DNA of 62,533 nt from an uncultured Candidatus Saccharibacteria bacterium (GTDB lineage Bacteria; Patescibacteriota; Minisyncoccia; 2-02-FULL-40-12; GWA2-44-9): the NCBI GenBank assembly GCA_964436165.1, contig CAYTBY010000003.1:1-62533 (forward strand), in the 5' to 3' direction. The stretch's first letter is position 1, and each line of letters begins with the position of its first letter. Made by a program: the position numbers and the translations under genes. The notes below the pieces were generated by a model. It saw only the letters and a list, made by a program, of their open reading frames with translations. It did not search any database and was not told where the DNA came from. Of this stretch, positions 4,402 through 53,489 are shown in pieces.

Positions 4402-6252
4402 TTATTCCACCGTTACTGACTTAGCAAGATTCCTCGGCTTATCGACGTCATGCCCTCGCAAGACCCCCATATAATAGGCAAGCAGATGCAGAGGCATAAC
4501 TGATAATATTGGCGTGAGCATTTCCAGTGTTTCTGGGATATATATAACGTCATCGGCTAATTCGGCAATTTCCTTATCGCCCCGAGTGGCAATCGCTATC
4601 ACCGGCCCCCGGCGGGCTTTTATTTCTTGGATATTGCTTATGACTTTTTCATGCATTGAATCAGATGGAACAATCACTACCGACGGAAACTTGTAATCTA
4701 TCATTGCCAACGGACCATGCTTCATCTCCCCCGCTCCATAACCTTCGGCATGGATATATGAAACCTCCTTGAGCTTCAGGGCACCTTCCAAAGCAACCGG
4801 ATAATTATACTTGCGTCCAAGAAAGAGAAAGTCGTTGTACTTGTGATACTTTCTGGCTATTTTTTTAATCTCTTTCGCCTGGCTTAAAATAATCCTCATC
4901 TTATCCGGCAATACGCTCAATTCCTCTGCTATTTTTCTCCCGGCGCTAGAAGACATATCTCTCTGCCGACCCAAAAATAAAGCCAGCAAGGCCATGACCG
5001 CCACTTGTGAAACAAAGGCTTTGGTTGAAGCAACGCCAATTTCCGGACCAGCATGGTTATATACCCCGGCCCTGGTTTCTCTGGCGATTGAAGAGCCGAC
5101 AGTATTAACCACGCCCAGAACCATTAAGCCCTTTCTTTTTATCTCCCGTAAAGCGCTAAGAGTATCCGCCGTCTCTCCGGACTGACTTACTGCCAAAAGC
5201 GCCGTTTTTCGGTCAAGATTATTTTTTTTATATTTTAATTCGGAAGCATATTCGGTCTCAACCTGAACGCCGCCATGGGCCTCGATCATATACTCGCCAG
5301 TCAAGCCGGCATAGTAAGCCGTACCACAAGCAGTAATAACAAGCCGATTTAATTTTCTTAAATCTTTTTCAACCGTTTCTAACCCGCCGAGCTTGGCTAA
5401 ACCATCTTTAATAATTAACCGGCCCCTTATCGCATTCTCCACCGCTTCCGGCTCTTCATAAATTTCCTTGAGCATAAAATGAGGGAACTTATTCTTCTTA
5501 ACCTGATCCTCTGACCAGTCGATGCTTTCCTCGTCTCGCTCAATGGCTTGCCGGTCTAAAGTTGCAATTCTAAAATCTTTTGGGGTTAAAATAGCAAATT
5601 CGCCGTCCTCAAGATAAACGACTTTTCTGGTATGGGGCAAGATAGCCGAGGCGTCAGAAGCCACGTACTTTGCATTATCAGAAAAACCGACCAGAAGAGG
5701 GCTTGAATTCCTGGCCACGATCATCTTCCCAGGATGATTAGCGTGAATAATAGTAAAAGCATAAGTGCCGATAATAGACTTGAGGGCCAGACGAACCGAT
5801 TCCTCAAAACTCATTCCTTGTCCGCCAGCTGGCGGATTCATAAAATCTTCGATCAAATGGACTGCTACTTCGGTATCGGTATCAGAGTTAAATCTGTGGC
5901 CCTTTCCAAGAAGCTGATTTTTTAACTCCTTATAATTCTCAATTATCCCGTTATGGGTCAGATATATTTTTTTATTACAGCTAAAGTGAGGATGGGAATT
6001 TTTGTCAGTCGGCGCCCCGTGTGTTGCCCAGCGGGTATGACCGATGGCAGTGCTGGACTCTATGTTTCGATTAACTATTTTTTCAAGTTCAAAAACTCGG
6101 CCCGACTTTTTGCAAGAAAAAACACCCCTTTTAGTAACCGCCGCAATACCGGCAGAATCATAACCCCGGTATTCGAGGCGCTTTAAACCGTCCAATATAA
6201 TCGGGACTGCCTTTATACTGTTCTTGCTAACATATCCGAATATTCCACACAC
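4402..6252 (-). CDS. glmS: Glutamine-fructose-6-phosphate aminotransferase (GTG start)
   Basis: N-terminal CGI, GHTRWATHG, SQSGETAD and C-terminal PRNLAKSVTVE. Confidence 0.98.
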   Translation of the reverse strand: MCGIFGYVSKNSIKAVPIILDGLKRLEYRGYDSAGIAAVTKRGVFSCKKSGRVFELEKIVNRNIESSTAIGHTRWATHGAPTDKNSHPHFSCNKKIYLTHNGIIENYKELKNQLLGKGHRFNSDTDTEVAVHLIEDFMNPPAGGQGMSFEESVRLALKSIIGTYAFTIIHANHPGKMIVARNSSPLLVGFSDNAKYVASDASAILPHTRKVVYLEDGEFAILTPKDFRIATLDRQAIERDEESIDWSEDQVKKNKFPHFMLKEIYEEPEAVENAIRGRLIIKDGLAKLGGLETVEKDLRKLNRLVITACGTAYYAGLTGEYMIEAHGGVQVETEYASELKYKKNNLDRKTALLAVSQSGETADTLSALREIKRKGLMVLGVVNTVGSSIARETRAGVYNHAGPEIGVASTKAFVSQVAVMALLALFLGRQRDMSSSAGRKIAEELSVLPDKMRIILSQAKEIKKIARKYHKYNDFLFLGRKYNYPVALEGALKLKEVSYIHAEGYGAGEMKHGPLAMIDYKFPSVVIVPSDSMHEKVISNIQEIKARRGPVIAIATRGDKEIAELADDVIYIPETLEMLTPILSVMPLHLLAYYMGVLRGHDVDKPRNLAKSVTVE

Positions 6253-6370
6253 TTCTTCGCTCCTTGCGGAGCTTCCCCCTTCGTTAAAACTTCGGGGGAC
6301 AAGACGAAGTACTTTCCGTACTTGTCCTACGAAAGTTTACTGAAGTAGGAGCTTTAGCGAAGGAGGGCTA
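6253..6370. repeat. Nested palindromic element in the glmS 5' region (CCGAAGCT/AGCGAAGG family)
   Basis: Several stacked hairpins, ending AGCTTTAGCGAAGGAGGGC; related motifs at 6502, 27188, 28655 and 53368. Confidence 0.7.
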
Positions 6371-6383
6371 CATTTACTTTATT

Positions 6384-6421
6384 ATATCAATAAAAGCGCC
6401 TTATGGCGCTTTTATTGATAT
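6384..6421 (-). terminator. Probable intrinsic terminator of rpsP
   Basis: Perfect 17-bp stem ATATCAATAAAAGCGCC-ttat-GGCGCTTTTATTGATAT just after the rpsP stop. Confidence 0.7.
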
Positions 6422-6432
6422 TGATTAATTAT

Positions 6433-6798
6433 TTATACCGTCGGGGCTGGAATCGGTTCGACTGGTTTTGCAACTTGTCCCTTGTCGCTTGTTCCTTGCT
6501 TGCCCGACGAAGCCTCGGCGGAGGCGGGTCGCTTCTTAGGTTTCCAGCTCTGCATTTTAGGTTTATCCCAGACTTTATAATTTACCATGAGATTGTTGAC
6601 TGTCGGAGAAATTTGAGCGCCTTTTGAAATCCAATATTCGATTCTGTCTCGTTTAACTTTAAACTCTTTCTGGTGTGGGTTATATGTACCCAAAAGCTCA
6701 AGGTACTTGCCCTTGACCCTTGAGGTATGCTCGAGGATAACGACCCTAAAATAGGCCTGCCCCCTTTTTCCCGTTCTTTGCAAACGAATCATTAACAT
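6433..6798 (-). CDS. rpsP: 30S ribosomal protein S16
   Basis: MLMIRLQRTGKRGQAYFRVV...ELLGTYNP; the C-terminal tail includes a repeat-derived segment. Confidence 0.97.
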   Translation of the reverse strand: MLMIRLQRTGKRGQAYFRVVILEHTSRVKGKYLELLGTYNPHQKEFKVKRDRIEYWISKGAQISPTVNNLMVNYKVWDKPKMQSWKPKKRPASAEASSGKQGTSDKGQVAKPVEPIPAPTV

Positions 6799-6842
6799 GT
6801 TATTAGTTTATAGTAAAACCCTATAAAAAGCAAATTTAAAAA

Positions 6843-7121
6843 TTATTTAGAGTTGATTGATATCTTTAATTTTGCATCCAATGCTTCGGCAATTTTATAG
6901 AGAAGACCCACGCTGGGGTTATAAGTACCCGATTCAAAACGAGAGATTGCTGACTGCCTTGTGCCCATTATTTCTGCGAGTTCTTTTTGAGTTATTTTGC
7001 ATTGAAGTCGTTTTCTGATAAGTAACGTGGCAACTTCAAATTCGGGCCCCAATTCGTCATAGGCCCTTTTTATATGCTTATTGCCAAGGAGTTGTTTTTT
7101 AAACTTTGCGTAGCTTTTCAT
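6843..7121 (-). CDS. XRE HTH antitoxin (HigA-like)
   Basis: TQKELAEIMGTRQSAISRFESG helix-turn-helix; downstream of a RelE-like toxin. Confidence 0.85.
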   Translation of the reverse strand: MKSYAKFKKQLLGNKHIKRAYDELGPEFEVATLLIRKRLQCKITQKELAEIMGTRQSAISRFESGTYNPSVGLLYKIAEALDAKLKISINSK

Positions 7122-7142
7122 AAAAGCAGTATAACATATATG

Positions 7143-7460
7143 TTATCTGACAACAAGAAGTATGGTCAATTTTTGTAAAGCGATCTTAATCTCCTTGCCC
7201 GGGATTTGCCGGCTTTTCTTCAAGAAACCGTGAAGCAGCACCGCCTCGTCCCGGTAGAATGTATAAAAAATACGGACTTCTTGCTTGCCACGTATTCTAA
7301 GTTCATACAATTTATTCTTGATCTTTTTACTGTGTGGCAACCCAAGAGAACTTCCAAATATTTCTAAAAGATCGATGGTGCGTAATACTTTTGCCACCGT
7401 CAGTTTTTCCAGAGAACTGATAAATGTCTCGACCCCAGAATCAAAAAGATTAATTTTCAT
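7143..7460 (-). CDS. HigB/RelE-like toxin
   Basis: LYELRIRGKQEVRIFY...LLHGFLKKS motif; start placed at MKINLF, which follows TGcTAATAT by 7 nt. Confidence 0.82.
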   Translation of the reverse strand: MKINLFDSGVETFISSLEKLTVAKVLRTIDLLEIFGSSLGLPHSKKIKNKLYELRIRGKQEVRIFYTFYRDEAVLLHGFLKKSRQIPGKEIKIALQKLTILLVVR

Positions 7461-7540
7461 CGAGAATATATTAGCAAAATTCAAAAAATAAGCAAGCACA
7501 TACCCGCCTTAAAATATTCTGAGGATTAGTCAGTTTCTCA

Positions 7541-7975
7541 TTATTTTTTATTGGAGTGGACTCTTGCGAAAATAACCAATACGGCAAATACAATTAAAAA
7601 TGAACCTTCTACAATTTCAATTACTGTATAAAACGGTTGTGTATAGAAATAAAGCGAGGAATAATTTCCAAAACCATCGAAAAAATCACTTATTAAAAAA
7701 TAGAAAAGAACAAGGCCATGTAAAAAAGCCCAGATTCCAATAATAAAAATTAAATCCCTATAATACTCTACTCTTCTAGACAACCCAAGGATAACTAAAG
7801 CGGCAAGAAGCACAAAAGAACCATAAATTTGAGATAGAAATTTTGAAAATGATAAAGCACTAACTGGCCAAACTTCAATTACATCTTTCAGCCGCAAATT
7901 AAAAAAATGAATACTAAAATCAACGAGTAAATATATCCCCATTACTATTAATCCAATTCTTATCAGAAGATTCAT
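7541..7975 (-). CDS. Hypothetical membrane protein
   Basis: About four hydrophobic segments. Confidence 0.7.
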   Translation of the reverse strand: MNLLIRIGLIVMGIYLLVDFSIHFFNLRLKDVIEVWPVSALSFSKFLSQIYGSFVLLAALVILGLSRRVEYYRDLIFIIGIWAFLHGLVLFYFLISDFFDGFGNYSSLYFYTQPFYTVIEIVEGSFLIVFAVLVIFARVHSNKK

Positions 7976-8098
7976 AATTTGTTTGAATCTAGATTAACAA
8001 AAAACTCGATTGGACGAAAGTACTTAGCCCCACAAGAAAAAACGGCTTTCGCCGTTTATTACATAAAACTACTAATAAGGACAAGGGTACTTCGCAGC

Positions 8099-8527
8099 TC
8101 ATGTTTTAAAATTATTTAAAATTTGATTTAGCTTTTCTGATTTTTCGGTGCTGATTTTTTGAGACATAAAACCAACATAGCTGGCCAGAATTTTTTTGAA
8201 AACCATTTTGGATGTTTGGCCCATTTTTTCTTTGGGATAGGCAGAGTCAATGACTCTTTGGATCTCGGTGACGTTAGGATCATTTTTATCGTATTTTTTT
8301 TCAATAGCTACCCCGGCGATCCAATCCCGCTGTTCATCAGAGAGGCAACCCCGTATTTCCATAAGTAACTGGTTGGCAAACTTCCGCTTAAAACCCTCGA
8401 GAGCTTCTTCTTTCTCGGGTTCAAAGAAATTTAAAACATCAAAAATCTCCCAAAGTATTCTTTTGTATTCGCCCTTAATCATGAGAATCGTTAGAGTCGG
8501 AAAATCCATCAAGAGCCTCTGTGGCAA
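8099..8527 (-). CDS. Hypothetical protein
   Basis: 142-aa ORF co-oriented with its neighbours; true start may be an internal Met. Confidence 0.6.
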   Translation of the reverse strand: MPQRLLMDFPTLTILMIKGEYKRILWEIFDVLNFFEPEKEEALEGFKRKFANQLLMEIRGCLSDEQRDWIAGVAIEKKYDKNDPNVTEIQRVIDSAYPKEKMGQTSKMVFKKILASYVGFMSQKISTEKSEKLNQILNNFKT

Positions 8528-8666
8528 TATCTCTTAACACTTCAAATGGTATCTCAACCGGCATAATCATGGTTTCTCCGATAATTTGCGCGATTTCTCC
8601 CACCCCGCCCCACTCCTCTTGAGATCCCCAATTTTCTGAATGTGATTCTGATTCTTCGTATGGCAT
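8475..8666 (-). CDS. Small acidic hypothetical protein
   Basis: 63-aa ORF, protein-like composition, in operon position. Confidence 0.45.
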   Translation of the reverse strand: MPYEESESHSENWGSQEEWGGVGEIAQIIGETMIMPVEIPFEVLRDIATEALDGFSDSNDSHD

Positions 8667-8701
8667 AAGATAAATTTAGGACTTGCACGTAGGTCCTGAG
8701 A

Positions 8702-9577
8702 TCATACTTTTATGCTATGAACATAGTCAACCAACCCTTGTTTATGATTATAACCATTTCTATCCGTTTCATCAACACGGCCCATTATATCAAAGTAAAG
8801 ATTTCTTATTTCTAATCTGGCTCTTTTTATTAAGCCGTCCTCCATGCCGAAAGATTTTTCTAAGAAAACGGATTCGATGAACCGGGCAACCAACGTATCG
8901 CCAAACTCTTTTTCTTTACCTGAAACAAAAGCCAGTCCCCCGGCAATGTCGCGTATCCCATGCTGTTTAGTTAAAATACACGATTCGATTATACCAGTCG
9001 CCCGATTAAACATCTGCCGTTTAGTTGCCTCATAAGCTCTGGAGTCGTCGGCATACTTATTAACTATCTCTCCGACTCTGTAATAAACATAGCTAACCAA
9101 AATAACATGAAGGCTGGGAAAATAATTTCTGGGCCTGTCCAGCAAGTGAAGAATTTGGAGAGGCAGACCCTTGCTTCTCCTATCGGCAAAAACCGTGGGA
9201 GCATGATCAAAGATAAAACCGGCGCTAGAATAAACATCAATTAGAGAAGTGATCAGATTATCAATATCTTGATCAGCTTTATTTTTAAATTCCTTCTTTA
9301 AAAACCAGAGGCTTCCTACCAAAAAGGGTATAAAGCTGAAATAAGTGCTAACTACTCCGGCCATGGGCTGTATTTCCAAATCTAAGGAAACGTCAATAAA
9401 AGTTGCCGGTTTTCTTTTGAGCTGCTGAAAAAAGTAATCGGTAAAAATATGCTTTAGAAGCTTAAAAAGACTTTTTCTGTGCTCTTTAAAAAGATAGAAC
9501 AGGCCATAAAACATGGGACCGGTGCCCAATTTAAAACCTTGATAATAACCAGCGGGGATAATATTCTCGTTTTCCAT
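8702..9577 (-). CDS. PAP2-superfamily-like phosphatase/phosphotransferase
   Basis: FPSLHV and QHGIRDIAGG resemble the PAP2 C2 and C3 motifs. Confidence 0.5.
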   Translation of the reverse strand: MENENIIPAGYYQGFKLGTGPMFYGLFYLFKEHRKSLFKLLKHIFTDYFFQQLKRKPATFIDVSLDLEIQPMAGVVSTYFSFIPFLVGSLWFLKKEFKNKADQDIDNLITSLIDVYSSAGFIFDHAPTVFADRRSKGLPLQILHLLDRPRNYFPSLHVILVSYVYYRVGEIVNKYADDSRAYEATKRQMFNRATGIIESCILTKQHGIRDIAGGLAFVSGKEKEFGDTLVARFIESVFLEKSFGMEDGLIKRARLEIRNLYFDIMGRVDETDRNGYNHKQGLVDYVHSIKV

Positions 9578-9604
9578 CTGATTACTGACGTTGAGTTAAA
9601 TTTA

Positions 9605-10300
9605 TTAAGCCCACCCCTTTTTACGTAAAGCGTCGCTTGCGGCATTTTGCTGGGCTTCTTGTTTCGACGGCCCTTGACCGGAACCAATCATTTCTTTTTC
9701 AAGAAAAACACCGATTTTAAAGTTCCGAGCATGATCCGGCCCCCACTCTTCCAGCACTTCATAGGTAGGCGTAATGCCGACATGCTCCTGGGCATACTCC
9801 TGGAACAAGCTCTTCGGATCGCGATAAAGTCGTTCTTTAATTATTGTCGAAAGTTCTTTGAGGACAAACCGGCTTATGAATTTTTTAGACGGTTCGTAAC
9901 CCTGGTCAAGATAAATGGCCCCGATAAGAGCCTCGATCGCATTGGCTAAAATATACTGTCTGGCCCGGCCGGTATCGCGGGCTTCTCCACGCGAAAGCAA
10001 AACAAAATCATTTAGACTAAATTCATTCGATATTTGAGATAGGATAACGGCATTAACCAGAGCCGCCCGCCAATTGGTCAGTTCCCCTTCGGGATTGGGA
10101 TAGTTATTGTAAAGATATTCGGTCACCACTAATTCTAAAACCGCATCGCCCAAAAATTCCAGACGTTCATTATGGTCCAGATGCCATTTTGGGTTTTCGT
10201 TTAAATACGAACGGTGAGTGAGGGCTTGCAAAAGCAAATCCTTATTTTTGAACTCAAGGCCTATCTTTGCCTCAAGTCCGGAGATTTTATCCTCGAACAC
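9605..10300 (-). CDS. rnc: Ribonuclease III
   Basis: HNERLEFLGDAVL signature plus a C-terminal dsRBD. Confidence 0.98.
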   Translation of the reverse strand: MFEDKISGLEAKIGLEFKNKDLLLQALTHRSYLNENPKWHLDHNERLEFLGDAVLELVVTEYLYNNYPNPEGELTNWRAALVNAVILSQISNEFSLNDFVLLSRGEARDTGRARQYILANAIEALIGAIYLDQGYEPSKKFISRFVLKELSTIIKERLYRDPKSLFQEYAQEHVGITPTYEVLEEWGPDHARNFKIGVFLEKEMIGSGQGPSKQEAQQNAASDALRKKGWA

Positions 10301-10311
10301 GTAGAGAAATT

Positions 10312-10410
10312 AAAAATGCAAAAATCAAAATTCAAAATGACAGTTCAAAATCTTAAAATTTTGAGATTTTACATTGTCATTTTCCATTTTGATATTTAAA
10401 TTTTAAATTA
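10312..10410. repeat. 7-nt-periodic imperfect hairpin
   Basis: A-rich block (AAAATGC AAAAATC AAAATTC) followed by a complementary T-rich block; related arrays at 27293-27321 and 34318-34375. Confidence 0.55.
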
Positions 10411-10411
10411 C

Positions 10412-10945
10412 TTATTCTTTTTTATCTTCATCGTCTTCCTTCCCCCCTCGTTCCTCTGGAGCAGGGCTCACCTCATCAGATGAATCGGCTTTATCTTTTG
10501 CAGGAGGTGCATCATCTTTCCCCGGCTCGCCTATCTCGCGATAAACCGTTCCCAAAACTCCGTTCACAAACTTGCCCGATGATTCTCCGCCGAATGACTT
10601 GGCAAGCTCTATCGCTTCATTTATGGCAACTTTGGGCGGTACTTCATCCCTCTTTCCAAAAAGCAATTCATATAAGCCGATTCTCAAAACATTCCGATCA
10701 ACTACTGCCACTTGATTCAACGGCCATTGAGGAGCGGCCTTTTCTATAATTTTATCAATGTCGTCAATATGCTTGATTGAACCATCAATAAGCTGGTGAA
10801 TAAAGGCCGTATCTTCAAGACCGGAAGCAAATTCTTTTATGTTTCTGTCTCTGATGCCTGCCAACTCTTCCATTTTTCTGCCTCGAAAATCCCACTCATA
10901 GAGGGTTTGCATTGCGACTGAACGTGAAAGATGCCTTGATGCCAC
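10412..10945 (-). CDS. nusB: Transcription antitermination factor NusB (GTG start)
   Basis: [36 protein letters not shown] and FVNGVLG motifs. Confidence 0.96.
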
Positions 10946-10954
10946 TTAAAATGT

Positions 10955-11031
10955 AACGCGAATCTACGAATTCACGCGAATGCTACAAATAATTATTTGC
11001 GGCATTCGTATGTCATTCGTTGATTTGCATT
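10955..11031. repeat. Imperfect palindromic element, homologous to 28334-28417
   Basis: Reverse complement starts AATGCAAATCAACGAATGACATACGAATGCCGCAAAT; 33/37 identical to the start of the 28334 copy. Confidence 0.75.
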
Positions 11032-11251
11032 ACTTTTGCCGTTTCTTCAACTTCTCTTTCTTCTTCAATTCTTTTGCCAATACATTAACCGCCTCTTTGC
11101 CCCGGTAAAAACCGCAATTCTTGCAAACTAAATGAGGCAAGGTCTTTTTCTTGCATTGGGGACAATCAGCTAATTTTAACGGCTTGAGGGCTAGATGACT
11201 GCGCCTTCGCAGTTGCTTGCCCTTGGCCATGTGATGACGTGGTACTGCCAT
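11030..11251 (-). CDS. rpmF: 50S ribosomal protein L32
   Basis: MAVPRHH...CPQC...PHLVCKNCGFY zinc-ribbon. Confidence 0.96.
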   Translation of the reverse strand: MAVPRHHMAKGKQLRRRSHLALKPLKLADCPQCKKKTLPHLVCKNCGFYRGKEAVNVLAKELKKKEKLKKRQK

Positions 11252-11464
11252 AATAACTTGTTCGCTCTTTTATCTGGCTCAAATACCTACGAGCCCTCGC
11301 CAAAAGAGCCCCTCGGGTTTACTCAATTTCTTCGTTAAAATCTACGTTTGAGTCTCGACGTAGTTCTACTACGCCTCGCCTCAAGCCTCGATTTTGCCTT
11401 GAACTTGAGATAAACGACCTACGTTATTAAGAATAAGATTAGCATGAAATAATAATTTCTGCAA

Positions 11465-11531
11465 CCAGGAAGTGAATTTTTGAACGGCTTCGCTTGACGC
11501 CTTCGGCGCATTTCGAAAATCTACTTCCTGG
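11465..11531. repeat. Long imperfect hairpin (terminator or palindromic element)
   Basis: CCAGGAAGT...ACTTCCTGG closing stem with internal pairing. Confidence 0.5.
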
Positions 11532-11556
11532 CAAACAAAAAAAGAGCCTGTTAGCT

Positions 11557-12129: not shown

Positions 12130-12182
12130 AAGGCAGATATGGATGTCCTCGCAGCGCGCATCCGCGACTGAGCGGGCAGGGT

Positions 12183-12225
12183 TAAATAACTATGTTAAAC
12201 ATCCGATGTTTAACATAGTTATTTA
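12183..12225. repeat. Perfect palindrome (21-bp arms, 1-nt loop)
   Basis: TAAATAACTATGTTAAACATC-c-GATGTTTAACATAGTTATTTA. Confidence 0.85.
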
Positions 12226-12250
12226 GAGCGAAGGAGCGGCGCAATGAGAG

Positions 12251-12324
12251 CTCTCGCTGGGTCAAGGCGAAGGTTCACTGGAGGAACTTCCAGGGAATCG
12301 CCTCAGCTCGAATGGTAGCGAGAG
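12251..12324 (+). repeat. Nested hairpin element, GGGTCAAGGCGAAGGTT...GGAATCGCCTC family
   Basis: Same flanking motifs at 26048-26101 around a different central hairpin. Confidence 0.7.
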
Positions 12325-12446
12325 GATATCTATATCTGCCTTAAACGTAACGATGATAAGGAAAATGGTTGGAAAAAGATTAAATTTTTGACTTGTCCAC
12401 ACTTTTTCCTCATTGCTCAGTTTGGTGCGAGTGATAAAATTAGATT

Positions 12447-27187: not shown

Positions 27188-27284
27188 ATCCTCCGAAGCC
27201 TTGCTTGCACTCTGAAGCTTTCCCGGCCTTCGTAGCCGAAGCTACTTCGACGGAGTAGGCAGCGAAAGAGTGGCGAAGGAGGAT
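27188..27284. repeat. Triply nested CCGAAGC(T/C)/GCGAAGG palindromic element
   Basis: Outer ATCCTCCGAAGCC...GCGAAGGAGGAT, middle CACTCTGAAGCTT...AGCGAAAGAGTG, inner GCCTTCGTAGCCGAAGC...GTAGGC. Confidence 0.7.
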
Positions 27285-28417: not shown

Positions 28418-28418
28418 A

Positions 28419-32165
<3,747 letters not shown>

Positions 32166-39991: not shown

Positions 39992-40000
39992 TGATATGAA

Positions 40001-42858: not shown

Positions 42859-42945
42859 AGCCCCCCCTTTTTGTCCTTTTGTTACTTGTTAACGGTCTAA
42901 TCTATGTATAACATAAAAACGAAGAAATGTCAAAAAAGTCGTAAT

Positions 42946-42994: not shown

Positions 42995-43008
42995 ATCAAT
43001 TTTCCACC

Positions 43009-43886: not shown

Positions 43887-43948
43887 CCAAACATTATATC
43901 ATAAAATAACTTAAAATCCAAAATAAAAAGCTACTAATGCCGAGGTTC

Positions 43949-45247: not shown

Positions 45248-45277
45248 GCTACATTCTACTTACTACATACTACTTTC

Positions 45278-46999
45278 TTATTGAACCGTTCCCTCTCGTG
45301 GTTGATCAACAAGATCGTTCGAAGTCAGCCCGTTCTTATTTATTATAATACTTTGTTTGGTAAAGCCATCGGTCCCCGTAAGCTGGACCTTGTCAATTAA
45401 TTGGACTACCGTACCTTTCTGCTGGCTTGACGGTTTAATTTTAACCCTAAAGCTTGCCTCGTATTTATCTGTAAACACTCCTGTCCCATAGGGCAATCTC
45501 AGCAAAATCCATTTAACTTCGATTGAATTAGGATTATATGTCGGTACTGGTAAATTATCACTGGCTTTGGTCATGCCCTCCCACTCAACTCCCGGCGGTA
45601 ACTTAGTCACTAATTCCGGATTCTCGACATCATTCCCGGGATTGGTTAAAAGCCAATGAATTGTAAAATATGTCTCTTCTCCGGCTCGAAGCGGAAACGG
45701 CCCAAAAGAACCAAAGTTTGGATCGTTATAATAAGCCGATTGATTAAGAGTCGGTTCGGTGCCGATTTTTGTTACTAGTCCGGCCGTAACTGCAACTTCG
45801 GGGGCATCAAATCCTGTTGGCACATTCGGCGTTCCGAATTTCGCCGAGGCCTTAACAAACTTATCCTGTGAAGCTCCAGGTATCGACGAAGAAAAAGATG
45901 TTTTCAGGCCAACACTGAAGTTAACTTGCCCCTTTAAGTTCGGCGTAAAGTTGGCAAAATCAGAGATAGTACTGCTGTTCCAGCTAATTGTTTTAGCGGC
46001 ATCATCAAAAAATCCGCCCCTGGTATCCAGATTGGTAAAGTCAAAAGTGTCGCCCTCCAGCTTAACCGACAAATTCATGCCAAAAAAATTAACATTCGAA
46101 TTGTTGGCATATTGCACGGTATAGTTAAGCCGATCGCCGAGAGAGGCCGAATAATCGGTAACACCGTTAACTAAAATTTCCAATCCCAAAACCGGATTAG
46201 ATATTACCGTCATGGCCGACGATTTTTGATAATCAACATATTTTCCGCTTATCTTTCTTTTTAATTTTACAGAGACAACTTTGCTCTCCCCCTCGTTGCC
46301 TTTAATAATGCCGTTTATGGTTATTCTATTGCCACTCCCCTTTTTAAGCGACTGAATCTGCCAAGAATTATTTCCTGAGTTAGGACTAGGATTAAACTCT
46401 CGGGGAGTAAAACCGTCCGGGTAATCAAACTCCAAGATCAAGTCGGAGGCATCCTCGCCGGAAGTGTTTCTGTAATCAAGAATGTACTGAACCCCGGCTC
46501 CGGAAACTGTACTTGGAGGAGCAACCAGAGTAATGGTTATGGGGGCACTGGTTATTGTCGTGGAGAGAGTCGCGTTCTTTTCGAAAGTGGAGCTTAGATT
46601 CCCCGATCTGAAAGAGAGTACGGCTTTGGCAACTTTTATGCCACCCTTTTCACCAATAAGAAAGGCCTTGAATTCCTTCTCGCCCTTTTCACCGGAAGCA
46701 AGTTCGTCAATCTTAAAATCCTCGCTATAATCCTCAAAAATTTTACCATCTATTAAAACAGCCGAGCCCTCCGGATAAATAAAGGCAAAATCAAGATCAT
46801 AAAGCGTACTTCTGGTTTCGTTGGAATATTTTAATTTATATACCACCTCTTCGCCGGAAGTTACCTGGGTCGGGCCCTCAAGTTCAAAAACCACATCTCT
46901 TTCGCGAAAAGACGGCCCGCTAAACCAAAAGGAAGAGATGGCCACGATTAATAAGACAAAAGCCAGTAAAACTAAGTATTTAAGTATCTTAGAACTCAT
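45278..46999 (-). CDS. Membrane-anchored extracellular beta-sandwich (DUF11-like) protein
   Basis: N-terminal transmembrane segment; repeated YxLxYxN motifs. Confidence 0.7.
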   Translation of the reverse strand: MSSKILKYLVLLAFVLLIVAISSFWFSGPSFRERDVVFELEGPTQVTSGEEVVYKLKYSNETRSTLYDLDFAFIYPEGSAVLIDGKIFEDYSEDFKIDELASGEKGEKEFKAFLIGEKGGIKVAKAVLSFRSGNLSSTFEKNATLSTTITSAPITITLVAPPSTVSGAGVQYILDYRNTSGEDASDLILEFDYPDGFTPREFNPSPNSGNNSWQIQSLKKGSGNRITINGIIKGNEGESKVVSVKLKRKISGKYVDYQKSSAMTVISNPVLGLEILVNGVTDYSASLGDRLNYTVQYANNSNVNFFGMNLSVKLEGDTFDFTNLDTRGGFFDDAAKTISWNSSTISDFANFTPNLKGQVNFSVGLKTSFSSSIPGASQDKFVKASAKFGTPNVPTGFDAPEVAVTAGLVTKIGTEPTLNQSAYYNDPNFGSFGPFPLRAGEETYFTIHWLLTNPGNDVENPELVTKLPPGVEWEGMTKASDNLPVPTYNPNSIEVKWILLRLPYGTGVFTDKYEASFRVKIKPSSQQKGTVVQLIDKVQLTGTDGFTKQSIIINKNGLTSNDLVDQPREGTVQ

Positions 47000-47003
47000 T
47001 TTT

Positions 47004-47687
47004 CTATCTTAACATAGAATTCAAGAAATTTAAGGAGTTGAGTTTTTTTTCGGCCAAACCCTCGAATAAGGCCCCGATAATAGCTGGCGTTTGCCAATCA
47101 TTACTTTTCAGAACTATTCCTTTTTGTCCCGAAAGAAAACAGTTTTTACAAACCCCACCCTTGACTTCGGTGCTATAAGCCATCAGTAGGCCATCTAAAG
47201 AAGCCGAACAAAAAGCACACTCGTTAAAATTAGGAGCATAGCCAAGAATGTTCAAAAATTCAACCTGTTTTTCTATTAAAAATTCCTTATGCCCAGAAGC
47301 AAGGCTTCCGGGAACTTGGGGAGTATTCAAATCCCCTACTAAAGTTGCGATGAAATTCCACAATTCTTCATCTTTTTGATAATCAAAAGCTGCTTTATCG
47401 ATGACTTCGGCAAAAAAATAGGCTGTAGCCAGAGACGGCAGATTATTCTTCAAATTAGCAAACGTCTGTTCAGCTTGAGCGCCGGTAATGATCGGGGTGG
47501 CTCGGCCATTTAGAAGTTCGAAATCAACCAGATTAAAAATATCCAGATGCATCGCCTGAATGGAGCTTGGCTTCAAAACACTCTTCGCTATCGCCGTCAC
47601 TTTCCCGAATTCTTCGGTATAACAAGTCACCAACTGATCATACTCATTGGTGTTTTGTTTTTTTAGAATTATTGCTTTAGTACGCAT
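47004..47687 (-). CDS. recO: DNA repair protein RecO
   Basis: YTEEFGKVTAIAKS N-terminal OB fold; CAFC/CKNC zinc finger. Confidence 0.9.
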   Translation of the reverse strand: MRTKAIILKKQNTNEYDQLVTCYTEEFGKVTAIAKSVLKPSSIQAMHLDIFNLVDFELLNGRATPIITGAQAEQTFANLKNNLPSLATAYFFAEVIDKAAFDYQKDEELWNFIATLVGDLNTPQVPGSLASGHKEFLIEKQVEFLNILGYAPNFNECAFCSASLDGLLMAYSTEVKGGVCKNCFLSGQKGIVLKSNDWQTPAIIGALFEGLAEKKLNSLNFLNSMLR

Positions 47688-47694
47688 ATCCAGT

Positions 47695-47717
47695 TTATAG
47701 TGGTCAGACCACTATAA
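47695..47717. repeat. REP-like palindrome flanking the transposase
   Basis: TTATAGTGGTC-a-GACCACTATAA. Confidence 0.85.
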
Positions 47718-47720
47718 TAC

Positions 47721-48407
47721 TTATTCAAATTCCGCCTGCTTCCACTTCCCTGCCAAAATAATATCTCGCGAAAAAGATTTAAATTTTGCTGAAGTATCAA
47801 AAAAGTCTTTAAAAATTTCCTTTTCTATAACAGGAGAAATATTTCGCATACCAGAATAGTCGCCCAAACTCGAGAATGAGTAAGTATTGGCCCATTTCCA
47901 CGCATCCTCAAAATTTTTCTGTGCACCAATTAGTCCGTTTTTAGGATAAAGTTCGAAAACATTTTTAACCATTATATATACTGCAACGTAGCATAAATAT
48001 TCGTCGGTTTTAATTGTCTTTGACTTATACGCACCCTGAAACAAACTTCCTTTTTCTTTATATTTAAGATTTGCGTGTTCAGTCATACTCTGGCCAATTT
48101 TTTTCATAAACAAAGAAGTGCCGCCTTTGCGTATTTCTTTTAATAACAAGTGGATATGATTGGGCATTAATGTATAACATAAAATATTTACTAGTGGTTT
48201 TTGTTTGGGCCAATTATCGGGACGATAGAATAGGCCCTTACCTTTTGTTATAACTGACCAATTAAAATCAACGTGTTCATCGTTCATAAAAAATAGAATG
48301 CGCAAAAAACGCCACATGTCTGACTCGTCATGAACAATGTCTATGCCACGCGCACCCCTTTTAAGTACGTGCAGATAAGAACCTGTTGTGTATGGCTCAA
48401 TTCTCAT
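47721..48407 (-). mobile_element. HUH (Y1) transposase, RAYT/IS200-like
   Basis: YLHVLKRG, LMPNHIHL (HUH), GSLFQGAY, putative catalytic Tyr in AVYIMVKN, YSFSS. Confidence 0.88.
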
Positions 48408-48434
48408 AAATATATCCTAACATATGTTTTAAAC

Positions 48435-48463
48435 ATCTTATAGTGGTCTAACCACTATAAGAT
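48435..48463. repeat. REP-like palindrome flanking the transposase
   Basis: ATCTTATAGTGGT-cta-ACCACTATAAGAT; contains the stop codon of the upstream hydrolase. Confidence 0.85.
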
Positions 48464-49036
48464 TGTCATTTTTAATAGTTCCTCCAAAACAACCAGCAGT
48501 TCGGTTGTACCCCAGTTGCTACTGAAATGCTTCATTTTGTGCTGAACTATTATTTTCGAACCGAGTTTATTCCTAAAGTCATCTTGATTGTCTAACGGTA
48601 CGTATGGGTCGTCATCAGAGAAAATAGCAACGCTACGGTCAAAATGACTTTTTACTTTTGCCAGGTCTAGGGGTGTTTTCATCCAATCTTTTTCAACTTC
48701 TTCAAAATCAGGCTCTTCTCTAAGCCCAGTCAGCCGTTTAAAAAATCCCGCCACGAAAACTATACCACCCACACTTATACCTTCGGACAGTGTTTCCAAA
48801 TATCTGGCAATTGCCTGGCAACCCATACTATGACCCACGAAATATGTGTTTTCATCTGGAGTTTTAACAACTTCAGTAATTGCTGGAATCCATTTCTTTA
48901 TCCTTGGACTATCAGCATCGGGCATTTGTGGGACATGAGCTTCGAATCCCCTATTCTCAAGCTCATGCTTAAGCCATGGAAACCAATTTTCCTCCGGATA
49001 CCCCTCCCAACCATGAATTATAAATACTCGTTTCAT
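48455..49036 (-). CDS. RBBP9/YdeN-family alpha/beta hydrolase
   Basis: IIHGW, VGHSMG nucleophile motif, SDDDPYVP, late His. Confidence 0.9.
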   Translation of the reverse strand: MKRVFIIHGWEGYPEENWFPWLKHELENRGFEAHVPQMPDADSPRIKKWIPAITEVVKTPDENTYFVGHSMGCQAIARYLETLSEGISVGGIVFVAGFFKRLTGLREEPDFEEVEKDWMKTPLDLAKVKSHFDRSVAIFSDDDPYVPLDNQDDFRNKLGSKIIVQHKMKHFSSNWGTTELLVVLEELLKMTIL

Positions 49037-49042
49037 AAAAAT

Positions 49043-49699
49043 TTAATTAAAAACCAGATACTTGCCTTCGCTTATTATTTCTAATTCCCCGTCAACAACC
49101 TTTAAAGCCGACTGGTCGTCCATGGCATAAATCTTTTCGGGTATATCTTTCACCGCCTTCCTTATATTATCCTCTACTCTCAAATTAAAATGAAGGGAGT
49201 TAAGATGCGGTAAAAAATAAAAATCTACATAATTAAGTCCGGCCATATCCTCCCTCCTCTCCAAATCCTCTCCGTAGAGAATCTGGGACTGCTTTAGCGC
49301 CAAGTCCTTGCCCGTTACCATGCTACCGGCGCTTAAGCCCACATATACCCTGGTTTTAAGTAATTCTGGCAGGATGTCTGTGAGTCCCGACTTATTCATC
49401 CACTCCATCAGGTGGTAGCTATTTCCACCCTCAAAAAACAGGACATTAGCTTCTTCCATTTTGGGTAGCCAAATTTTCTTATCAACCGCCGAAATATCAG
49501 CAATATCAATAGACTTAAAATTTTGTTTCTTTAAGTTTATTAAGTCGTTAATAAGCCAGTCCTTATCCCCTTTTTCTACGTTAGAAGCGGTCGGAATAAA
49601 GACCAAAGAAGTATCTTTTGGTTTTTTGCCAACCAAATCAAAAAGGGCATCAGCAATTGATTTATTAGTTAAACCCCCGGATGTAAGTAGTAATTTCAT
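49043..49699 (-). CDS. Peptidase E (S51 family)
   Basis: FIPTAS, EGGNS, GLSAGS and LPH motifs; start placed at MKLLLTSGG. Confidence 0.88.
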   Translation of the reverse strand: MKLLLTSGGLTNKSIADALFDLVGKKPKDTSLVFIPTASNVEKGDKDWLINDLINLKKQNFKSIDIADISAVDKKIWLPKMEEANVLFFEGGNSYHLMEWMNKSGLTDILPELLKTRVYVGLSAGSMVTGKDLALKQSQILYGEDLERREDMAGLNYVDFYFLPHLNSLHFNLRVEDNIRKAVKDIPEKIYAMDDQSALKVVDGELEIISEGKYLVFN

Positions 49700-49769
49700 A
49701 AAAATTAAAGTGTTTAGAAAATAAAGCGGAGCCCTTTCCATTTTGCAGACCTTCCGGTTTCGAGAAGGG

Positions 49770-49874
49770 CACAATAATTAAATTAATTGATAATTTGGCT
49801 ATATTGATTTCGGGTGTTGAGACTTTGGGAAACAGGGCCTGAAATCAATAAGCTAAATTGAAATTAATTTAATT
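49770..49874 (+). repeat. ~100-bp hairpin-forming dispersed repeat, copy B
   Basis: Nearly identical to the reverse complement of 2342-2446. Confidence 0.9.
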
Positions 49875-49922
49875 ATTTGCCGAAGAAATCCGGCCGGTCG
49901 AAAAATGGGAAGGGCGAAAGCT

Positions 49923-52900
49923 TTATTTTCTCACACCAACCCAGATTTTACGCTGTGGCGCCAACTCGAATTCTTTTTCAACATCATACGTCTTCTTACC
50001 TTTTGGACCAGAGACGAGCTCCTTAAGCAATGCCTCCCTTTTGATTTCCTCTGTCCACTCATGGATTGCCCCCGACACTTCCCCATCATCGGAATGCCAT
50101 TGGCCAAATATTTTCTCATCCAGCTTATATTTAGCTTCTTTCCTCATATCCTGGATTTGGCGGATTAGTTCTCTGGCATAACCCTCACCGATAAGAGCCG
50201 GCGATAATTCTGTGTCCAGGATAACTTCTTCCTTCTGATCTTTGTTCAAAACAACTTCTTTAACGTTGAGTTCTTCCTTTACTAAATCGAGTAACTGGTA
50301 ACTGGTAACTGGTAACTGGTAACTGCGAAGGGTTAGCTTCGCCAACGGTTGACGAACTTTTAACTGCTTTTCTTTTCTTATTGCCAATCCCGCCGTAACA
50401 ATATTTCTTACTTCATCCATCTCCTCCTCTAATTTTTTATCAATCAATTTTTTATCTATCTTCGGCCAATCTTGTAAATGAACACTCTCCAGATATTTAG
50501 ACATATCGATATTTCGATGAAGTCTTAAATGAATATCCTCTGCCAAAAAAGGCGTAAACGGAGCAAGAATCTTAGCTAATTCTAAAAGCAAAAACCTCAA
50601 AAGACCGAGAGCTTCCTTTCTTTTTCTTGAACGCCTCAGCCACCAATTCGACAAATCCTCAATCACGAATTTTTCTATTGCCCGGGCCGCAGTTGTCGGG
50701 TCATATTTATCTAAACTTTGCGTTGCTTCATCAATAAGGCCGTTGAGTTTTGAGATAATCCATCTATCGAGAAGGCTTGTATTCTGTATCTTGTATTTTG
50801 TATCTTGTATTTTTGAGTTAGCGTCGGAGTAATAAAGTTCGTAAAAACGAACACAATTTTGAACAGTAAAAATAAAACCCTTTAGCCTTTCCTGGACGCC
50901 TTTCTGGCTTACAACCATCGATTCTCCAATAGTATTGGCGGTATAAAAATACCAGCGGGTGGCATCAACACCGGCAGTATCAAGCAGTTCATTCGGCCTT
51001 ACAACATTACCGATTGATTTGGACATCTTCTTTCCCTTTTCATCCAAAGTATGACCTAAAACCATCACATTCTTGTAGGGATTGCCCTTGCCCAATAAAG
51101 TTGAGATTGCTAAAAGAGTATAAAACCAACCCCGAGTCTGGTCTATCGCTTCAATTATAAAATCTGCTGGGAATTGTTCTTTGAACATCTTTTTACTGTC
51201 AAACGGCTTGCCCTGAACTGTGTCAAAAGGCCAGTGCCATTGAGCATACGGCATCGCCCCAGAATCAAACCAGACATCTATCAAATCCGGCACTTTTTTC
51301 ATTGAAGCTCCGCACTCGCTGCATTTCAAATAAACTGAATCAACAAACGGCCGGTGAAGATCAAGTTCGCCGTATTCGTTTCTGGGTACCAGCTTCCAAT
51401 CAAGCTTTTGAACCTGAGCAAGATCGGAATAGTGGCCACGACCATCTTCTATCTCTGCTAAAATTTCTTTTCCCGTTGCACCAAGAGAGATCTCGGCAAA
51501 AAGCCAGAGCGGGTCGCCATGACTGACAATAAGAATATTTTTACCGAAGTATTTAGACTCCATTTCGTTTACAAAATCGAACACTCTCAACCGGACATCG
51601 TTCCAGCTCTCGCCTATTTCGTGATGCTTGTCATCCATGGTCGCTTTTTTGTCTCTGAAAGGACAACTGCCATGAGGCTTCCCCTCGCATCCGCCATGAA
51701 CTATCTCTGTGAGCCGATCGTCTTTGTTAACTTTGACATGAGTAAGTTTTGCAACAGTTTCAGCAGTTTCCATCGTCCTGATAAGGGGCGAAGAATAGAT
51801 GAGGTCTATTTTATAGTTGTTCTGAATAAATTGAGCTGTTTTTTCCACCTGCTTACGACCCTCGGCAGTAAGGTGATATTTGTCAGCTTTGGAATCGGCG
51901 CTAATTATCATTTTTTTTCGCTCATCCCGAGTAGTATAACCGTGGCGAAGGGTAAAATAAGTGTTTCTTTTTACAATTGCAGCTGTAGCCTGTTTCTCCA
52001 TTTCAGCAATTGAACCGATGACTTTGTAATTATCGCACTTCTGACATTTCCATATCGGTAGCGGTGTCCCCCAATAACGTTCCCGTGAAAAAGCCCAGTC
52101 CTTTCCCTCTTTCAACCATTGACCGAATCGGCCTTCCTTAATATGTCCGGGAAACCAGTTAATCTTCTGGCTATTTTTCAGAAGTTCTTCTTTAACGCCA
52201 GACATTTTGATGAACCAGGAACTTTTAGCGTAGTACAATAATGGCGAATGACACCGCCAACAGAAAGGATAATCATGTTCGTAGCCCTCTTCTTTAAAAA
52301 GTAGTTTTTTATCTTTAAGATAGTCAATCATTTTTTGGGTTGTCTTTTCTTCCGTCGGCTTATCTTTGTGTTTAACGACTAGACCATCGAAATCTTTCCC
52401 GACTCCAACAAATTTACCCTGTTCGTCAACGGTATGAAACTTGGGCAGTCCGAGTTTGGTACCTAAATCATAATCATCTTCACCATACATGACCGCCGTA
52501 TGGACAACGCCCGTACCTTCTTCAGTTGAAACAAAATCGGCATCGTAGACTTTATATGATGTTCGTGATTTTAATTCTTTAATGTCGAAAGGGGGTTCAT
52601 ATTCAAGGCCGACAAAGTCACTGCCTTTGTATTTTGTATCTTGTATTTTGTATCCTGTATCGGATCCAAGAACCTTATTTACCAGATCTTCGGCTAATAT
52701 AAAATGTTCCCCCTCTTTTTCGGCAATTACATAGCTAATATCCTTCCCGACAGCCAGAGCGACATTCCCCGGAAGCGTCCAAGGTGTCGTTGTCCAAGCG
52801 AGAATACAGGAATTAGGAAGTAGTTTGTAGGATTTAGGGTTTTTAATTTTAAATTTCACAATAACTGACCTATCAGTTATTGTGCGGTATCCTTGCGCAA

Positions 52901-53489
52901 CTTCATGAGATGAAATCGACGTTCCGCATCTGGCGCAATAAGGCACGACTTTGTGAGCAAGATACAACAGCTTCTTGTTCCATATTTGCTGGATTATATA
53001 CCAGAGCGTCTCAATATAATTATTTTCATAAGTAATATAGGGATCTTTCATATCCAGCCAGAATCCCATTTTTCGAGTCATCTCCTCCCATTCGGCCTTA
53101 TATTTCCAGACGCTTTCCCTGGCTTTTTTATTAAATTTTTCGATGCCGTAATTTTCTATATCTTTTTTAGACTTAAAACCCAATTCTTTTTCTACCTCAA
53201 TTTCCACCGGCAAACCATGGGTGTCCCAGCCGGCTTTACGCAAAACAAAAAAGCCCTGCATTGTTTTGTATCGGCCATAAAGATCTTTATAGACCCTGGT
53301 TAAAAAGTGGCCGATGTGGGGCAAACCATTGGCTGTCGGCGGGCCCTCAAAAAACACAAAGCGTTTGCCTGCCCGCCGAAGTCTTGACGAAGGAGGGGCT
53401 TTTTTGCGGGCCTCCAGAGATTTATCAAAAATATGGTTTTTATGCCAAAACTCAAGAATTTTATGTTCTGTATCCTTAAAATCGTACAT
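49923..53489 (-). CDS. ileS: Isoleucyl-tRNA synthetase (type 2) with an inserted histidine-phosphatase domain
   Basis: FFEGPPTANG...HIGH, GWDTHGLP, FSRERYWG and KMSKS motifs; insert carries LRHG...SHG. Confidence 0.96.
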   Translation of the reverse strand: MYDFKDTEHKILEFWHKNHIFDKSLEARKKAPPSSRLRRAGKRFVFFEGPPTANGLPHIGHFLTRVYKDLYGRYKTMQGFFVLRKAGWDTHGLPVEIEVEKELGFKSKKDIENYGIEKFNKKARESVWKYKAEWEEMTRKMGFWLDMKDPYITYENNYIETLWYIIQQIWNKKLLYLAHKVVPYCARCGTSISSHEVAQGYRTITDRSVIVKFKIKNPKSYKLLPNSCILAWTTTPWTLPGNVALAVGKDISYVIAEKEGEHFILAEDLVNKVLGSDTGYKIQDTKYKGSDFVGLEYEPPFDIKELKSRTSYKVYDADFVSTEEGTGVVHTAVMYGEDDYDLGTKLGLPKFHTVDEQGKFVGVGKDFDGLVVKHKDKPTEEKTTQKMIDYLKDKKLLFKEEGYEHDYPFCWRCHSPLLYYAKSSWFIKMSGVKEELLKNSQKINWFPGHIKEGRFGQWLKEGKDWAFSRERYWGTPLPIWKCQKCDNYKVIGSIAEMEKQATAAIVKRNTYFTLRHGYTTRDERKKMIISADSKADKYHLTAEGRKQVEKTAQFIQNNYKIDLIYSSPLIRTMETAETVAKLTHVKVNKDDRLTEIVHGGCEGKPHGSCPFRDKKATMDDKHHEIGESWNDVRLRVFDFVNEMESKYFGKNILIVSHGDPLWLFAEISLGATGKEILAEIEDGRGHYSDLAQVQKLDWKLVPRNEYGELDLHRPFVDSVYLKCSECGASMKKVPDLIDVWFDSGAMPYAQWHWPFDTVQGKPFDSKKMFKEQFPADFIIEAIDQTRGWFYTLLAISTLLGKGNPYKNVMVLGHTLDEKGKKMSKSIGNVVRPNELLDTAGVDATRWYFYTANTIGESMVVSQKGVQERLKGFIFTVQNCVRFYELYYSDANSKIQDTKYKIQNTSLLDRWIISKLNGLIDEATQSLDKYDPTTAARAIEKFVIEDLSNWWLRRSRKRKEALGLLRFLLLELAKILAPFTPFLAEDIHLRLHRNIDMSKYLESVHLQDWPKIDKKLIDKKLEEEMDEVRNIVTAGLAIRKEKQLKVRQPLAKLTLRSYQLPVTSYQLLDLVKEELNVKEVVLNKDQKEEVILDTELSPALIGEGYARELIRQIQDMRKEAKYKLDEKIFGQWHSDDGEVSGAIHEWTEEIKREALLKELVSGPKGKKTYDVEKEFELAPQRKIWVGVRK
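50291..50325. repeat. (GTAACTG)x5 tandem array within ileS
   Basis: Five perfect heptamers; translate as SYQLPVTSYQL. Confidence 0.9.

Follow-up and report, generated by a model that had tools for sequence, protein, structure and literature searches.

A tagged 30-nt hairpin repeat read in frame in housekeeping genes of a Patescibacteria genome

Short palindromic repeats and the F1 unit

Repetitive extragenic palindromic (REP) sequences and their REPIN arrangements in E. coli and Pseudomonas are imperfect palindromes of 20–40 nucleotides (nt) with a 5' GTAG, handled by REP-associated tyrosine transposases (RAYTs) of the IS200 type (Y1/HUH). IS200/IS605 elements show an orientation bias relative to the direction of replication, and IS608 and ISDra2 insert 3' of a fixed tetranucleotide without duplication. 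Rickettsia palindromic elements (RPEs), as summarised in PMC10969869, measure about 150 bp and comprise ten families, with 44 copies in R. conorii, nearly half of them in open reading frames (ORFs). Miniature transposable elements with inverted repeats (MITEs) such as Correia and ERIC are a further group for comparison (PMC10969869). Here, we describe a repeat of 30 nt, named F1, that occurs within rpsP, gyrB and ileS and in two intergenic regions of a 62,533-nt stretch of DNA (contig CAYTBY010000003.1 of assembly GCA_964436165.1; the whole stretch is called the window below). We are moderately confident that F1 is a very small non-autonomous insertion element, a 30-nt piece of DNA that is moved in trans and filtered by selection. 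The window is contig C3 of a 1.15-Mb genome (58 contigs, 41% GC), which is assigned to the Patescibacteria (candidate phyla radiation) because its nearest IleS homologues (76–80% identity) are named Candidatus Taylorbacteria and Yanofskybacteria. By Pfam, the host genes encode S16 (rpsP), GyrB with a LAGLIDADG intein, IleS, GlmS and NusG. Gene calls outside the window are ORF-based, relatives are labelled G001, G002 and so on, and most genomes compared are metagenome assemblies.

Alignment of the copies with their flanks gave a unit of 30 nt that consists of a YYTG tag (mostly CTTG or CCTG) at the 5' end, followed by Y, CCKCC, GAAGC, YTYR, GCGAA, GGMGG and R. Whereas the first Y and the last R form a pair, nothing on the 3' side is complementary to the tag, which makes the unit asymmetric. 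Its hairpin is made up of a GC-rich stem of 6 bp, a fixed GAA/GAA purine mismatch, an inner helix of 2–3 bp and the YTYR loop. A preliminary description of the window, based on its sequence, had spoken of a palindrome; the hairpin repeat stands, yet F1 is no true palindrome because GAA lies opposite GAA in nearly all copies. The opposite strand has a TTC/TTC mismatch, and by analogy with known G.A pairing one strand alone may form a continuous purine-stacked rod. The end of the tag is well kept in the 26 best copies (two mismatches at most), with T in 20 and G in 21 of them at the last two positions. A search with the 24-mer core CCKCCGAAGC-N4-GCGAAGGMGG returned 11 exact copies in the genome, 26 with at most two and 47 with at most four mismatches, compared to 0, 0 and 2 at the same thresholds in a simulated first-order Markov genome. 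With an nhmmer profile, about 75 copies are found at E < 1 (0–2 expected), and identical 30-mers stand at unrelated loci. Pairing is supported by covariation: across 41 distinct copies, 93% of the cells of the nine proposed pairs hold standard pairs (81% in shuffles), seven of the nine pairs show changes on both sides, and none of 500 shuffles reaches the observed score. The covarying stems are CCTCC/GGAGG, CCGCC/GGCGG, CACTCT/AGAGTG, GT/AC and AC/GT. The inner helix is 99% paired, and in slid registers pairing falls to 28–58%. Since loop positions 1 and 4 covary as well (T-A 23, C-G 17), the loops CTTG, TTTA, TTCA and CTCG are regarded as CUUG-like.

F1 and RPEs have in common that a palindromic repeat lies in frame in unrelated housekeeping genes, is translated and also occurs between genes, and that no transposase is known for either. 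F1 differs by its size, about one fifth of that of an RPE (roughly 100–150 bp per unit), its 5' tag and its fixed internal mismatch. F1 uses five of the six reading frames, whereas RPEs code for a conserved, family-specific peptide, and it occurs in a Patescibacteria host and in many phyla, whereas RPEs are confined to Rickettsia and close relatives. With REP sequences F1 shares a short imperfect palindrome with a conserved 5' tetranucleotide (YYTG, not GTAG), many dispersed copies and inverted doublets in non-coding DNA. REP sequences are, however, predominantly extragenic and specific to a species or genus, whereas about one third of the F1 copies are intragenic and the sequence is shared across phyla; moreover, F1 flanks no Y1_Tnp gene and its presence is independent of Y1_Tnp. 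The lack of a target-site duplication, the recognisable hairpin and a short 5' sequence that is preferred but not fixed may recall IS200/IS605 elements, but F1 is a single hairpin instead of two different ends, its 5' flank is tag-like instead of a fixed target, and no replication-strand bias was detected in a GC-skew test that is weak on 58 contigs. Like MITEs, F1 appears non-autonomous, dispersed and occasionally intragenic, but it is several-fold smaller and has neither MITE-type terminal inverted repeats nor a target-site duplication. F1 works like an RPE and is built like a REP sequence, and by size, host range, RAYT linkage and extragenic location it is a member of neither group.

Insertions relative to orthologues

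The ileS copy of F1 (53368..53397 (+), antisense to the gene; CCTGC-CCGCC-GAAGT-CTTG-ACGAA-GGAGG-G) codes for PPSSRLRRAG (aa 32–41). Its core at 53373–53396, CCGCCGAAGTCTTGACGAAGGAGG, is translated as PPSSRLRR, in a frame that differs from that of the gyrB copy, and its inner helix shows the compensatory change GT/AC. The closest same-genus orthologues read KSLEARKKAKRFVFFEGPP at this position (site 1), and the present genome has exactly 30 nt more, coding for the ten residues; most of the 29 readable orthologues show KSLExRKKAKRFVFFEGPP. The insert, which stands just before the strand leading to the HIGH motif, is missing from about 55 of 74 homologues; an exact gap of ten residues is found in its place in the solved IleS structures 1ILE (T. 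thermophilus) and 8C8U. A second ileS insert belongs to another family, F2 (51207..51230 (+), antisense; PFDTVQGK, aa 754–761). It is a diverged copy (20 of 24 matches to CTTGCCCTGAGCTTTGTCGAAGGG) within the segment 51198–51230 that codes for PFDTVQGKPFD, and represents an exact insertion of eight codons (+24 nt). Among 12 relatives only G005 has the same insert, most of the 74 homologues lack it, and the solved structure 8C9D has an exact eight-residue gap. The preliminary description had proposed in-frame insertion by an RPE-like process, and these exact differences of +30 and +24 nt support it; the inserted residues, whose presence in orthologues without palindromic DNA would have counted against it, are absent from most homologues and from the solved structures. 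Orthologue alignment, the check it suggested, fixes the boundaries at both ileS sites but not in gyrB and rpsP, which are hypervariable. Mapping onto AlphaFold models did not succeed for IleS. In the AlphaFold2 model (74-sequence alignment, mean predicted local distance difference test (pLDDT) 78.7), both inserts fall in segments of pLDDT < 50, and the model cannot place either of them because the conserved core 47–93 is also below 50. IleS further contains an inserted histidine-phosphatase domain (His_Phos_1; 51474–51950, aa 514–672). This domain is common to all listed homologues (Yanofskybacteria, Taylorbacteria and relatives) and is therefore an old domain insertion in this essential synthetase.

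Exact insertions of ten residues (+30 nt) were also found in murJ, in a DUF4012 gene and in the gene at C4:29558, together with one of 11 residues (+33 nt) in femX, using a chimeric protein query (orthologous segments of 20 other F1-bearing genes, ten relatives). The differences at the F1 sites of aspS, cysS, pgk and nrd are less clean or larger. In four relatives, the empty murJ site reads CGTCTC^AAAAGA without CTTG, which shows that the tag belongs to the insert. At the nucleotide level, no direct repeat flanks the clean insertions: F1 inserts as a precise block of 30 nt, in either orientation and without target-site duplication. This genome has gained copies at sites that are unrelated to each other, and its relatives have gained theirs independently. 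In secA there are two tandem copies here, a single one in the same loop of G003 and G006, and none in G001, G002 and G004. Site 1 of ileS, secA and gyrB carry different elements, or carry them at different positions, in different lineages (several other lineages have F2 at ileS site 1). Insertion has thus struck the same permissive loops more than once. The majority of the coding copies are found in this genome alone, and sub-variants specific to relatives occur, for example CTTCC in G002 and TCGCC in G001. Older orthologous copies drift, as in the G001 orthologue of the C4:29558 site, which reads SAEGSSEASSKED, and in secA of G006 (SSSAKASEDK); this argues against a function of the hairpin inside genes.

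Further F1 copies of the window lie in gyrB, in rpsP and between genes. In gyrB, the unit is antisense to the gene (28656..28685 (+), CTTGC-CCTCC-GAAGC-TTCA-GCGAA-GGAGG-G, aa 1158–1167), with CCTCCGAAGCTTCAGCGAAGGAGG at 28661–28684 and PSFAEASEG as the minus-strand reading. It is located in the variable, acidic linker that joins the C-terminal domain to the Toprim region, which the intein interrupts. G002 has SSFAEASED at this position, and in the other relatives the sequence here is acidic but unrelated and differs in length. In gyrB of G016, an F1 copy in another frame (LLRQGSGGQ) lies upstream at a distance of about 35 residues, and other relatives have no copy. The intein with its LAGLIDADG homing-endonuclease domain spans about 28989–30509 (aa 550–1056) and explains the length of the ORF, 1245 aa. 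In rpsP, F1 occupies the C-terminal tail of S16 (6499..6528 (+), antisense; PASAEASSGK, aa 91–100), where CCGACGAAGCCTCGGCGGAGGCGG at 6504–6527 is translated as PASAEASSG. This copy is slightly decayed (two core mismatches) and has a tag-like CTTG directly 5' of its own tag. The tail is variable among relatives, those of the same genus being 2–6 residues shorter and free of F1. The intergenic region between rpsP and glmS holds an F1 mosaic (6253..6370) of a full unit on the minus strand (6274–6303), a variant on the plus strand (6321–6350, inner helix AG/CT) and a right half-unit (6350–6367). Each strand of this mosaic folds into a rod (z -4.8 and -4.4). Directly downstream of rpsP, and apart from the mosaic, is a terminator-like hairpin (6385–6415), AAAAGCGCC-TTAT-GGCGCTTTT. 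Between secE and nusG, a nested composite (27190..27282 (+)) comprises an outer unit, CCTCCGAAGC-CTTG...GCGAAGGAGG, and an inner unit that begins directly after the loop CTTG of the outer one, with its own tag CTTG (27204–27207) and the covarying stem CACTCT/AGAGTG.

Repeat families, host range and coding copies

All repeats named in the preliminary description, in rpsP, gyrB, ileS and glmS and between genes, were found where it had placed them and with the same peptides. It had combined them into one family, which holds for rpsP, gyrB, ileS at 53368 and the two intergenic sites. There are, however, three families (F1, F2 and F3), and the palindrome of glmS and the PFD segment of ileS belong to the other two. 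F2 has a length of 24 nt (CTTG-CCCTGAGC-TTGT-CGAAGGG), codes for peptides such as ALRQAQGK and PFDKAQGK, and occurs in 24 copies in the genome, 13 with a YYTG tag. F3 is a perfect palindrome of 16 bp, TCCGCCAGCTGGCGGA, with 32 copies at one mismatch at most, mostly untagged. In glmS it is found at 5821..5836 and read as PPAGG (NPPAGG, about aa 140–144), a reading that recurs in tsaD and another ORF, and aspS of G016 has F3 at the site where this genome has F1. The claim of an insertion in glmS could not be upheld in clean form, as the loop is only 4–5 residues longer than in three same-genus orthologues. The YYTG tag is common to F1 and F2 only; the idea of CTTG as a general tag of GC-rich hairpins was rejected, with no enrichment in a census of perfect stems of at least 7 bp. 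F2 and F3 would behave like F1 but as distinct families. At five loci (C1:149559, C7:26892, C8:17154, C12:15035 and C18:22784), the F3 palindrome is surrounded by an identical longer repeat, ccttcgtaat-CCGCCAGCTGGCGG-atacatccca, so a larger repeated element carries F3 there.

The host range of F1 was assessed in 41 relatives from the same order (up to one mismatch in the core) and in 301 genomes of the phylum (exact core). F1 is present in 29 of the 41 relatives, across four families of the order, and in 34 of the 301 phylum genomes (11%), this genome having the highest number with 11 copies. The reversed pattern, used as control, matched nowhere in the 342 genomes searched. An exact-pattern scan across phyla, with one genome per species, gave at least 120 loci, where chance would yield about 0.4–41 matches depending on GC content. 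The matches listed include Alphaproteobacteria (isolates of Bradyrhizobium and Mesorhizobium), Acidobacteriota, Bacteroidota (Niastella), Verrucomicrobiota, Planctomycetota, Nitrospirota and others, and the isolate genomes with the core are from Bradyrhizobium, Mesorhizobium, Niastella and Sphingorhabdus. Among the 122 cross-phylum matches listed, 101 have one of the same four loops, 101 have a C-G or T-A closing pair and 39 have a YYTG tag (about 2 expected). As loops, closing pairs and tag are shared, chance is not sufficient to explain these matches. In low-GC matches, F1 is again found in frame in housekeeping genes, those for an Xaa-Pro peptidase, GlyRS, PurM, RecF and ABC ATPases. Conversely, 5,426 E. 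coli genomes contain no match, cultured phages contain no full-length match, and plasmids and phages gave partial matches at chance level or none. The distribution of F1 is wide but patchy. A literature search for the F1 sequence and for in-frame palindromes in these bacteria retrieved no relevant description.

Counting coding against non-coding copies, as the preliminary description had suggested, placed about 27 in long ORFs (about 24–27 of the about 75 copies) and 51 in non-coding DNA. Its observation that the repeat is read in different frames and orientations extends to the whole genome, where both orientations and five of the six frames are used. This use is uneven: 22 of the ORF copies are antisense and 5 sense to the gene (p = 0.0015), and the six frames account for 16, 3, 3, 2, 3 and 0 copies (p = 7e-7). 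The favoured frame (16 of 27) codes for an uncharged Ser/Ala/Glu peptide and the avoided ones are rich in Arg (PPKPWRRR, PPSPRLRR). The non-coding copies are unbiased by the strand of the neighbouring gene (23 versus 28), and the bias in coding DNA is therefore best explained by tolerance of the peptide rather than by the mode of insertion. We infer that selection on the peptide filters the insertions. Presumably, most hits in coding DNA are lost, and survivors would be those in loops, linkers or tails, mostly on the strand and in the frame of the uncharged Ser/Ala/Glu peptide. Because the unit equals ten codons, surviving insertions keep the reading frame, after which the peptide would drift.

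Proposed movement of F1 and alternative explanations

F1 usually stands directly 3' of a tag-like sequence. The identity of the 4 nt 5' of the tag to CTTG is 1.95 versus 1.00 (p < 0.0005) in this genome and, among the matches listed from other phyla, 1.44 versus 1.00 (p = 0.0015). A tag-like YYKG is enriched in this flank but not fixed, and CTTG-CTTG in tandem is seen at the rpsP copy and in the nested composite. Such a flank fits both microhomology-guided copying and an enzyme whose insertions go 3' of a tag-like site, without separating the two. For an element moved in trans, we propose that F1 is probably recognised as a folded single strand, as its tag and imperfect hairpin follow the REP layout and the purine mismatch is present on one strand only. 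The enzyme that would move it, supplied in trans, would not be the product of an IS200-like gene, judging from the hairpins that flank such genes.

Several observations weigh against this reading. The genome has five Y1_Tnp genes (IS200-like, about 230 aa), one of them in the window (47721–48407), and all five are bracketed by AT-rich hairpins of their own and none by F1. Y1_Tnp occurs in 29 of 44 F1-positive and in 13 of 27 F1-negative genomes (71 genomes, p = 0.21, pooled odds ratio 2.1), and the near-complete genomes G019 and G028 and the single-contig genome G063 have F1 and no Y1_Tnp. A Y1_Tnp or RAYT transposase as the mover of F1 was hence rejected on the flanking hairpins, with no significant co-occurrence. 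The non-coding copies split 28 versus 23 by local GC skew and show no replication-strand bias, in what is a weak test on 58 short contigs. The sites in gyrB, rpsP, pgk, nrd, cysS and glmS are not clean 30-nt differences. Finally, distant phyla among the matches listed share one 24-nt core and its four loops, and such conservation is difficult to explain for a selfish element unless it has a conserved partner or is transferred frequently.

The hairpins that flank the Y1_Tnp genes are small dispersed families of 4, 8 and 16 loci and resemble REP–RAYT units. The Y1_Tnp gene of the window (47721–48407, minus strand, 228 aa) has a 21-nt hairpin, TATAGTGGTCNGACCACTATA, on either side (47696–47716 and 48439–48459); this hairpin is also present at C6:34834 and C9:31623. 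A perfect palindrome of 41 nt centred on GTTAAACATCCGATGTTTAAC (window 12175–12222) has a core that is one of the 16 loci of the hairpin of the C18 Y1_Tnp gene. The AT-rich hairpin ATATGGAAGTTSAACTTCCATAT flanks the C5 Y1_Tnp gene (C5:16964–17347) and occurs twice in a DUF4012 gene (C35:3756 and 3793). As it is translated there twice as YMEVELPYI, in-frame read-through is not limited to GC-rich families. Elsewhere in the genome, unrelated small genes (arginase-family, PRTase-like and hypothetical) form cassette-like arrays (C2:4400–12300, C9:450–6500 and C26:1–2700), in which a conserved repeat of about 300 nt, GAACAAAGTTTTCC...AATGTTCTCTAC...ATTGGCCCTGCC...GGGGCCAAGGGGAATGGAAAACTTT, separates the genes. 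This repeat has F1 hairpins at two fixed slots, both of which are empty in the copy at C2:5838. An integron-like nature of the arrays, in which many F1 copies reside, was considered and rejected: ten adjacent ORFs scanned contained no integrase, and there were no attC-type ends and no Rfam match.

One alternative dispenses with a dedicated enzyme altogether. Templated copying would proceed by short-patch gene conversion or by template switching guided by microhomology: in replication or gap repair, a nascent strand with a tag-like YYKG at its end would switch to an existing copy, copy tag and hairpin, and return. Much of what was described above is compatible with such copying, namely the tag-like 4 nt 5' of the tag, with CTTG-CTTG in tandem in rpsP and in the nested composite, the absence of a target duplication, the absence of any enzyme association found, and the repeated use of the same sites by different hairpin families. 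In addition, the F2 insert of ileS adjoins a native CCNTTYGA that resembles its own end. We nonetheless regard templated copying as rather unlikely. If copying were simply primed by microhomology, one tag would be expected and not a full tag preceded by a native tag-like sequence, and copying leaves the GAA/GAA mismatch and the four loop types in distant phyla unexplained, as well as the burst of copies in this genome.

A second alternative is that F1 is a functional nucleic-acid signal, acting in RNA processing, stability or termination or as a protein-binding site, and is found in genes incidentally. Conservation across phyla, covarying helices and the invariant purine internal loop would suit such a signal, as would CUUG-type loops with pairing of positions 1 and 4 and copies that flank a 5S rRNA gene, lie near tRNA genes or stand in operon junctions. 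Around the 5S rRNA gene (C12:27731–28100), F1 stands about 40 nt away on each side, and these oppositely oriented copies could pair into a long enclosing stem. We consider a signal improbable, however, and an RNA function of F1 unlikely. No F1 site in the window or at eight other loci is overlapped by an Rfam 15 match, either at the gathering threshold or at E ≤ 1. Non-coding copies have no preferred orientation to neighbouring genes, mRNAs mostly carry the weak pyrimidine strand, and orthologous coding copies decay (the C4:29558 site in G001, secA in G006). The patchy distribution (11% of the phylum genomes, no E. coli match) and the separate terminator-like hairpin already present downstream of rpsP likewise speak against a signal. 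The same Rfam search returned sub-threshold microRNA-precursor matches at 57620–57694 of the window, an AT-rich inverted repeat of short tandem units (gtatct / atacaaa); these matches are weak and probably meaningless.

Chance, low-complexity or codon convergence, or an assembly artefact, for which one might point to the variable low-complexity protein segments and the prevalence of metagenome assemblies, is effectively refuted by the counts and controls: identical 30-mers at unrelated loci against 0–2 expected, no reversed-pattern match in 342 genomes, and F1 in isolate genomes and in intergenic as well as genic DNA.

Compared with these alternatives, insertion of a 30-nt element moved in trans is the reading that we carry forward. 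Its widest form can be put forward only as a tentative possibility: F1 may be a class of minimal mobile DNA shared by distant phyla, the smallest mobile unit known, moved by machinery other than the known REP-associated transposase, from which essential proteins keep gaining loops of ten residues, also well beyond ultra-small bacteria. Spreading without target duplication at a length of exactly ten codons, F1 would set a new lower bound for the size of a mobile element, and its core, nearly invariant from Bradyrhizobium to Patescibacteria, would point either to very wide horizontal spread or to a conserved partner that has gone unrecognised. In practical terms, F1 peptides such as FAKASEDK, ALAKAG, RRSFSEGG and LRQGFGGQ account for many unusual stretches of low complexity in annotations and for many spurious small ORFs, and the presence or absence of inserts can serve as a marker of strain history. 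In-frame palindromic insertions are not an oddity of Rickettsia but recur in streamlined genomes as a source of protein loops, with IleS alone carrying two such inserts here in addition to its inserted phosphatase domain.

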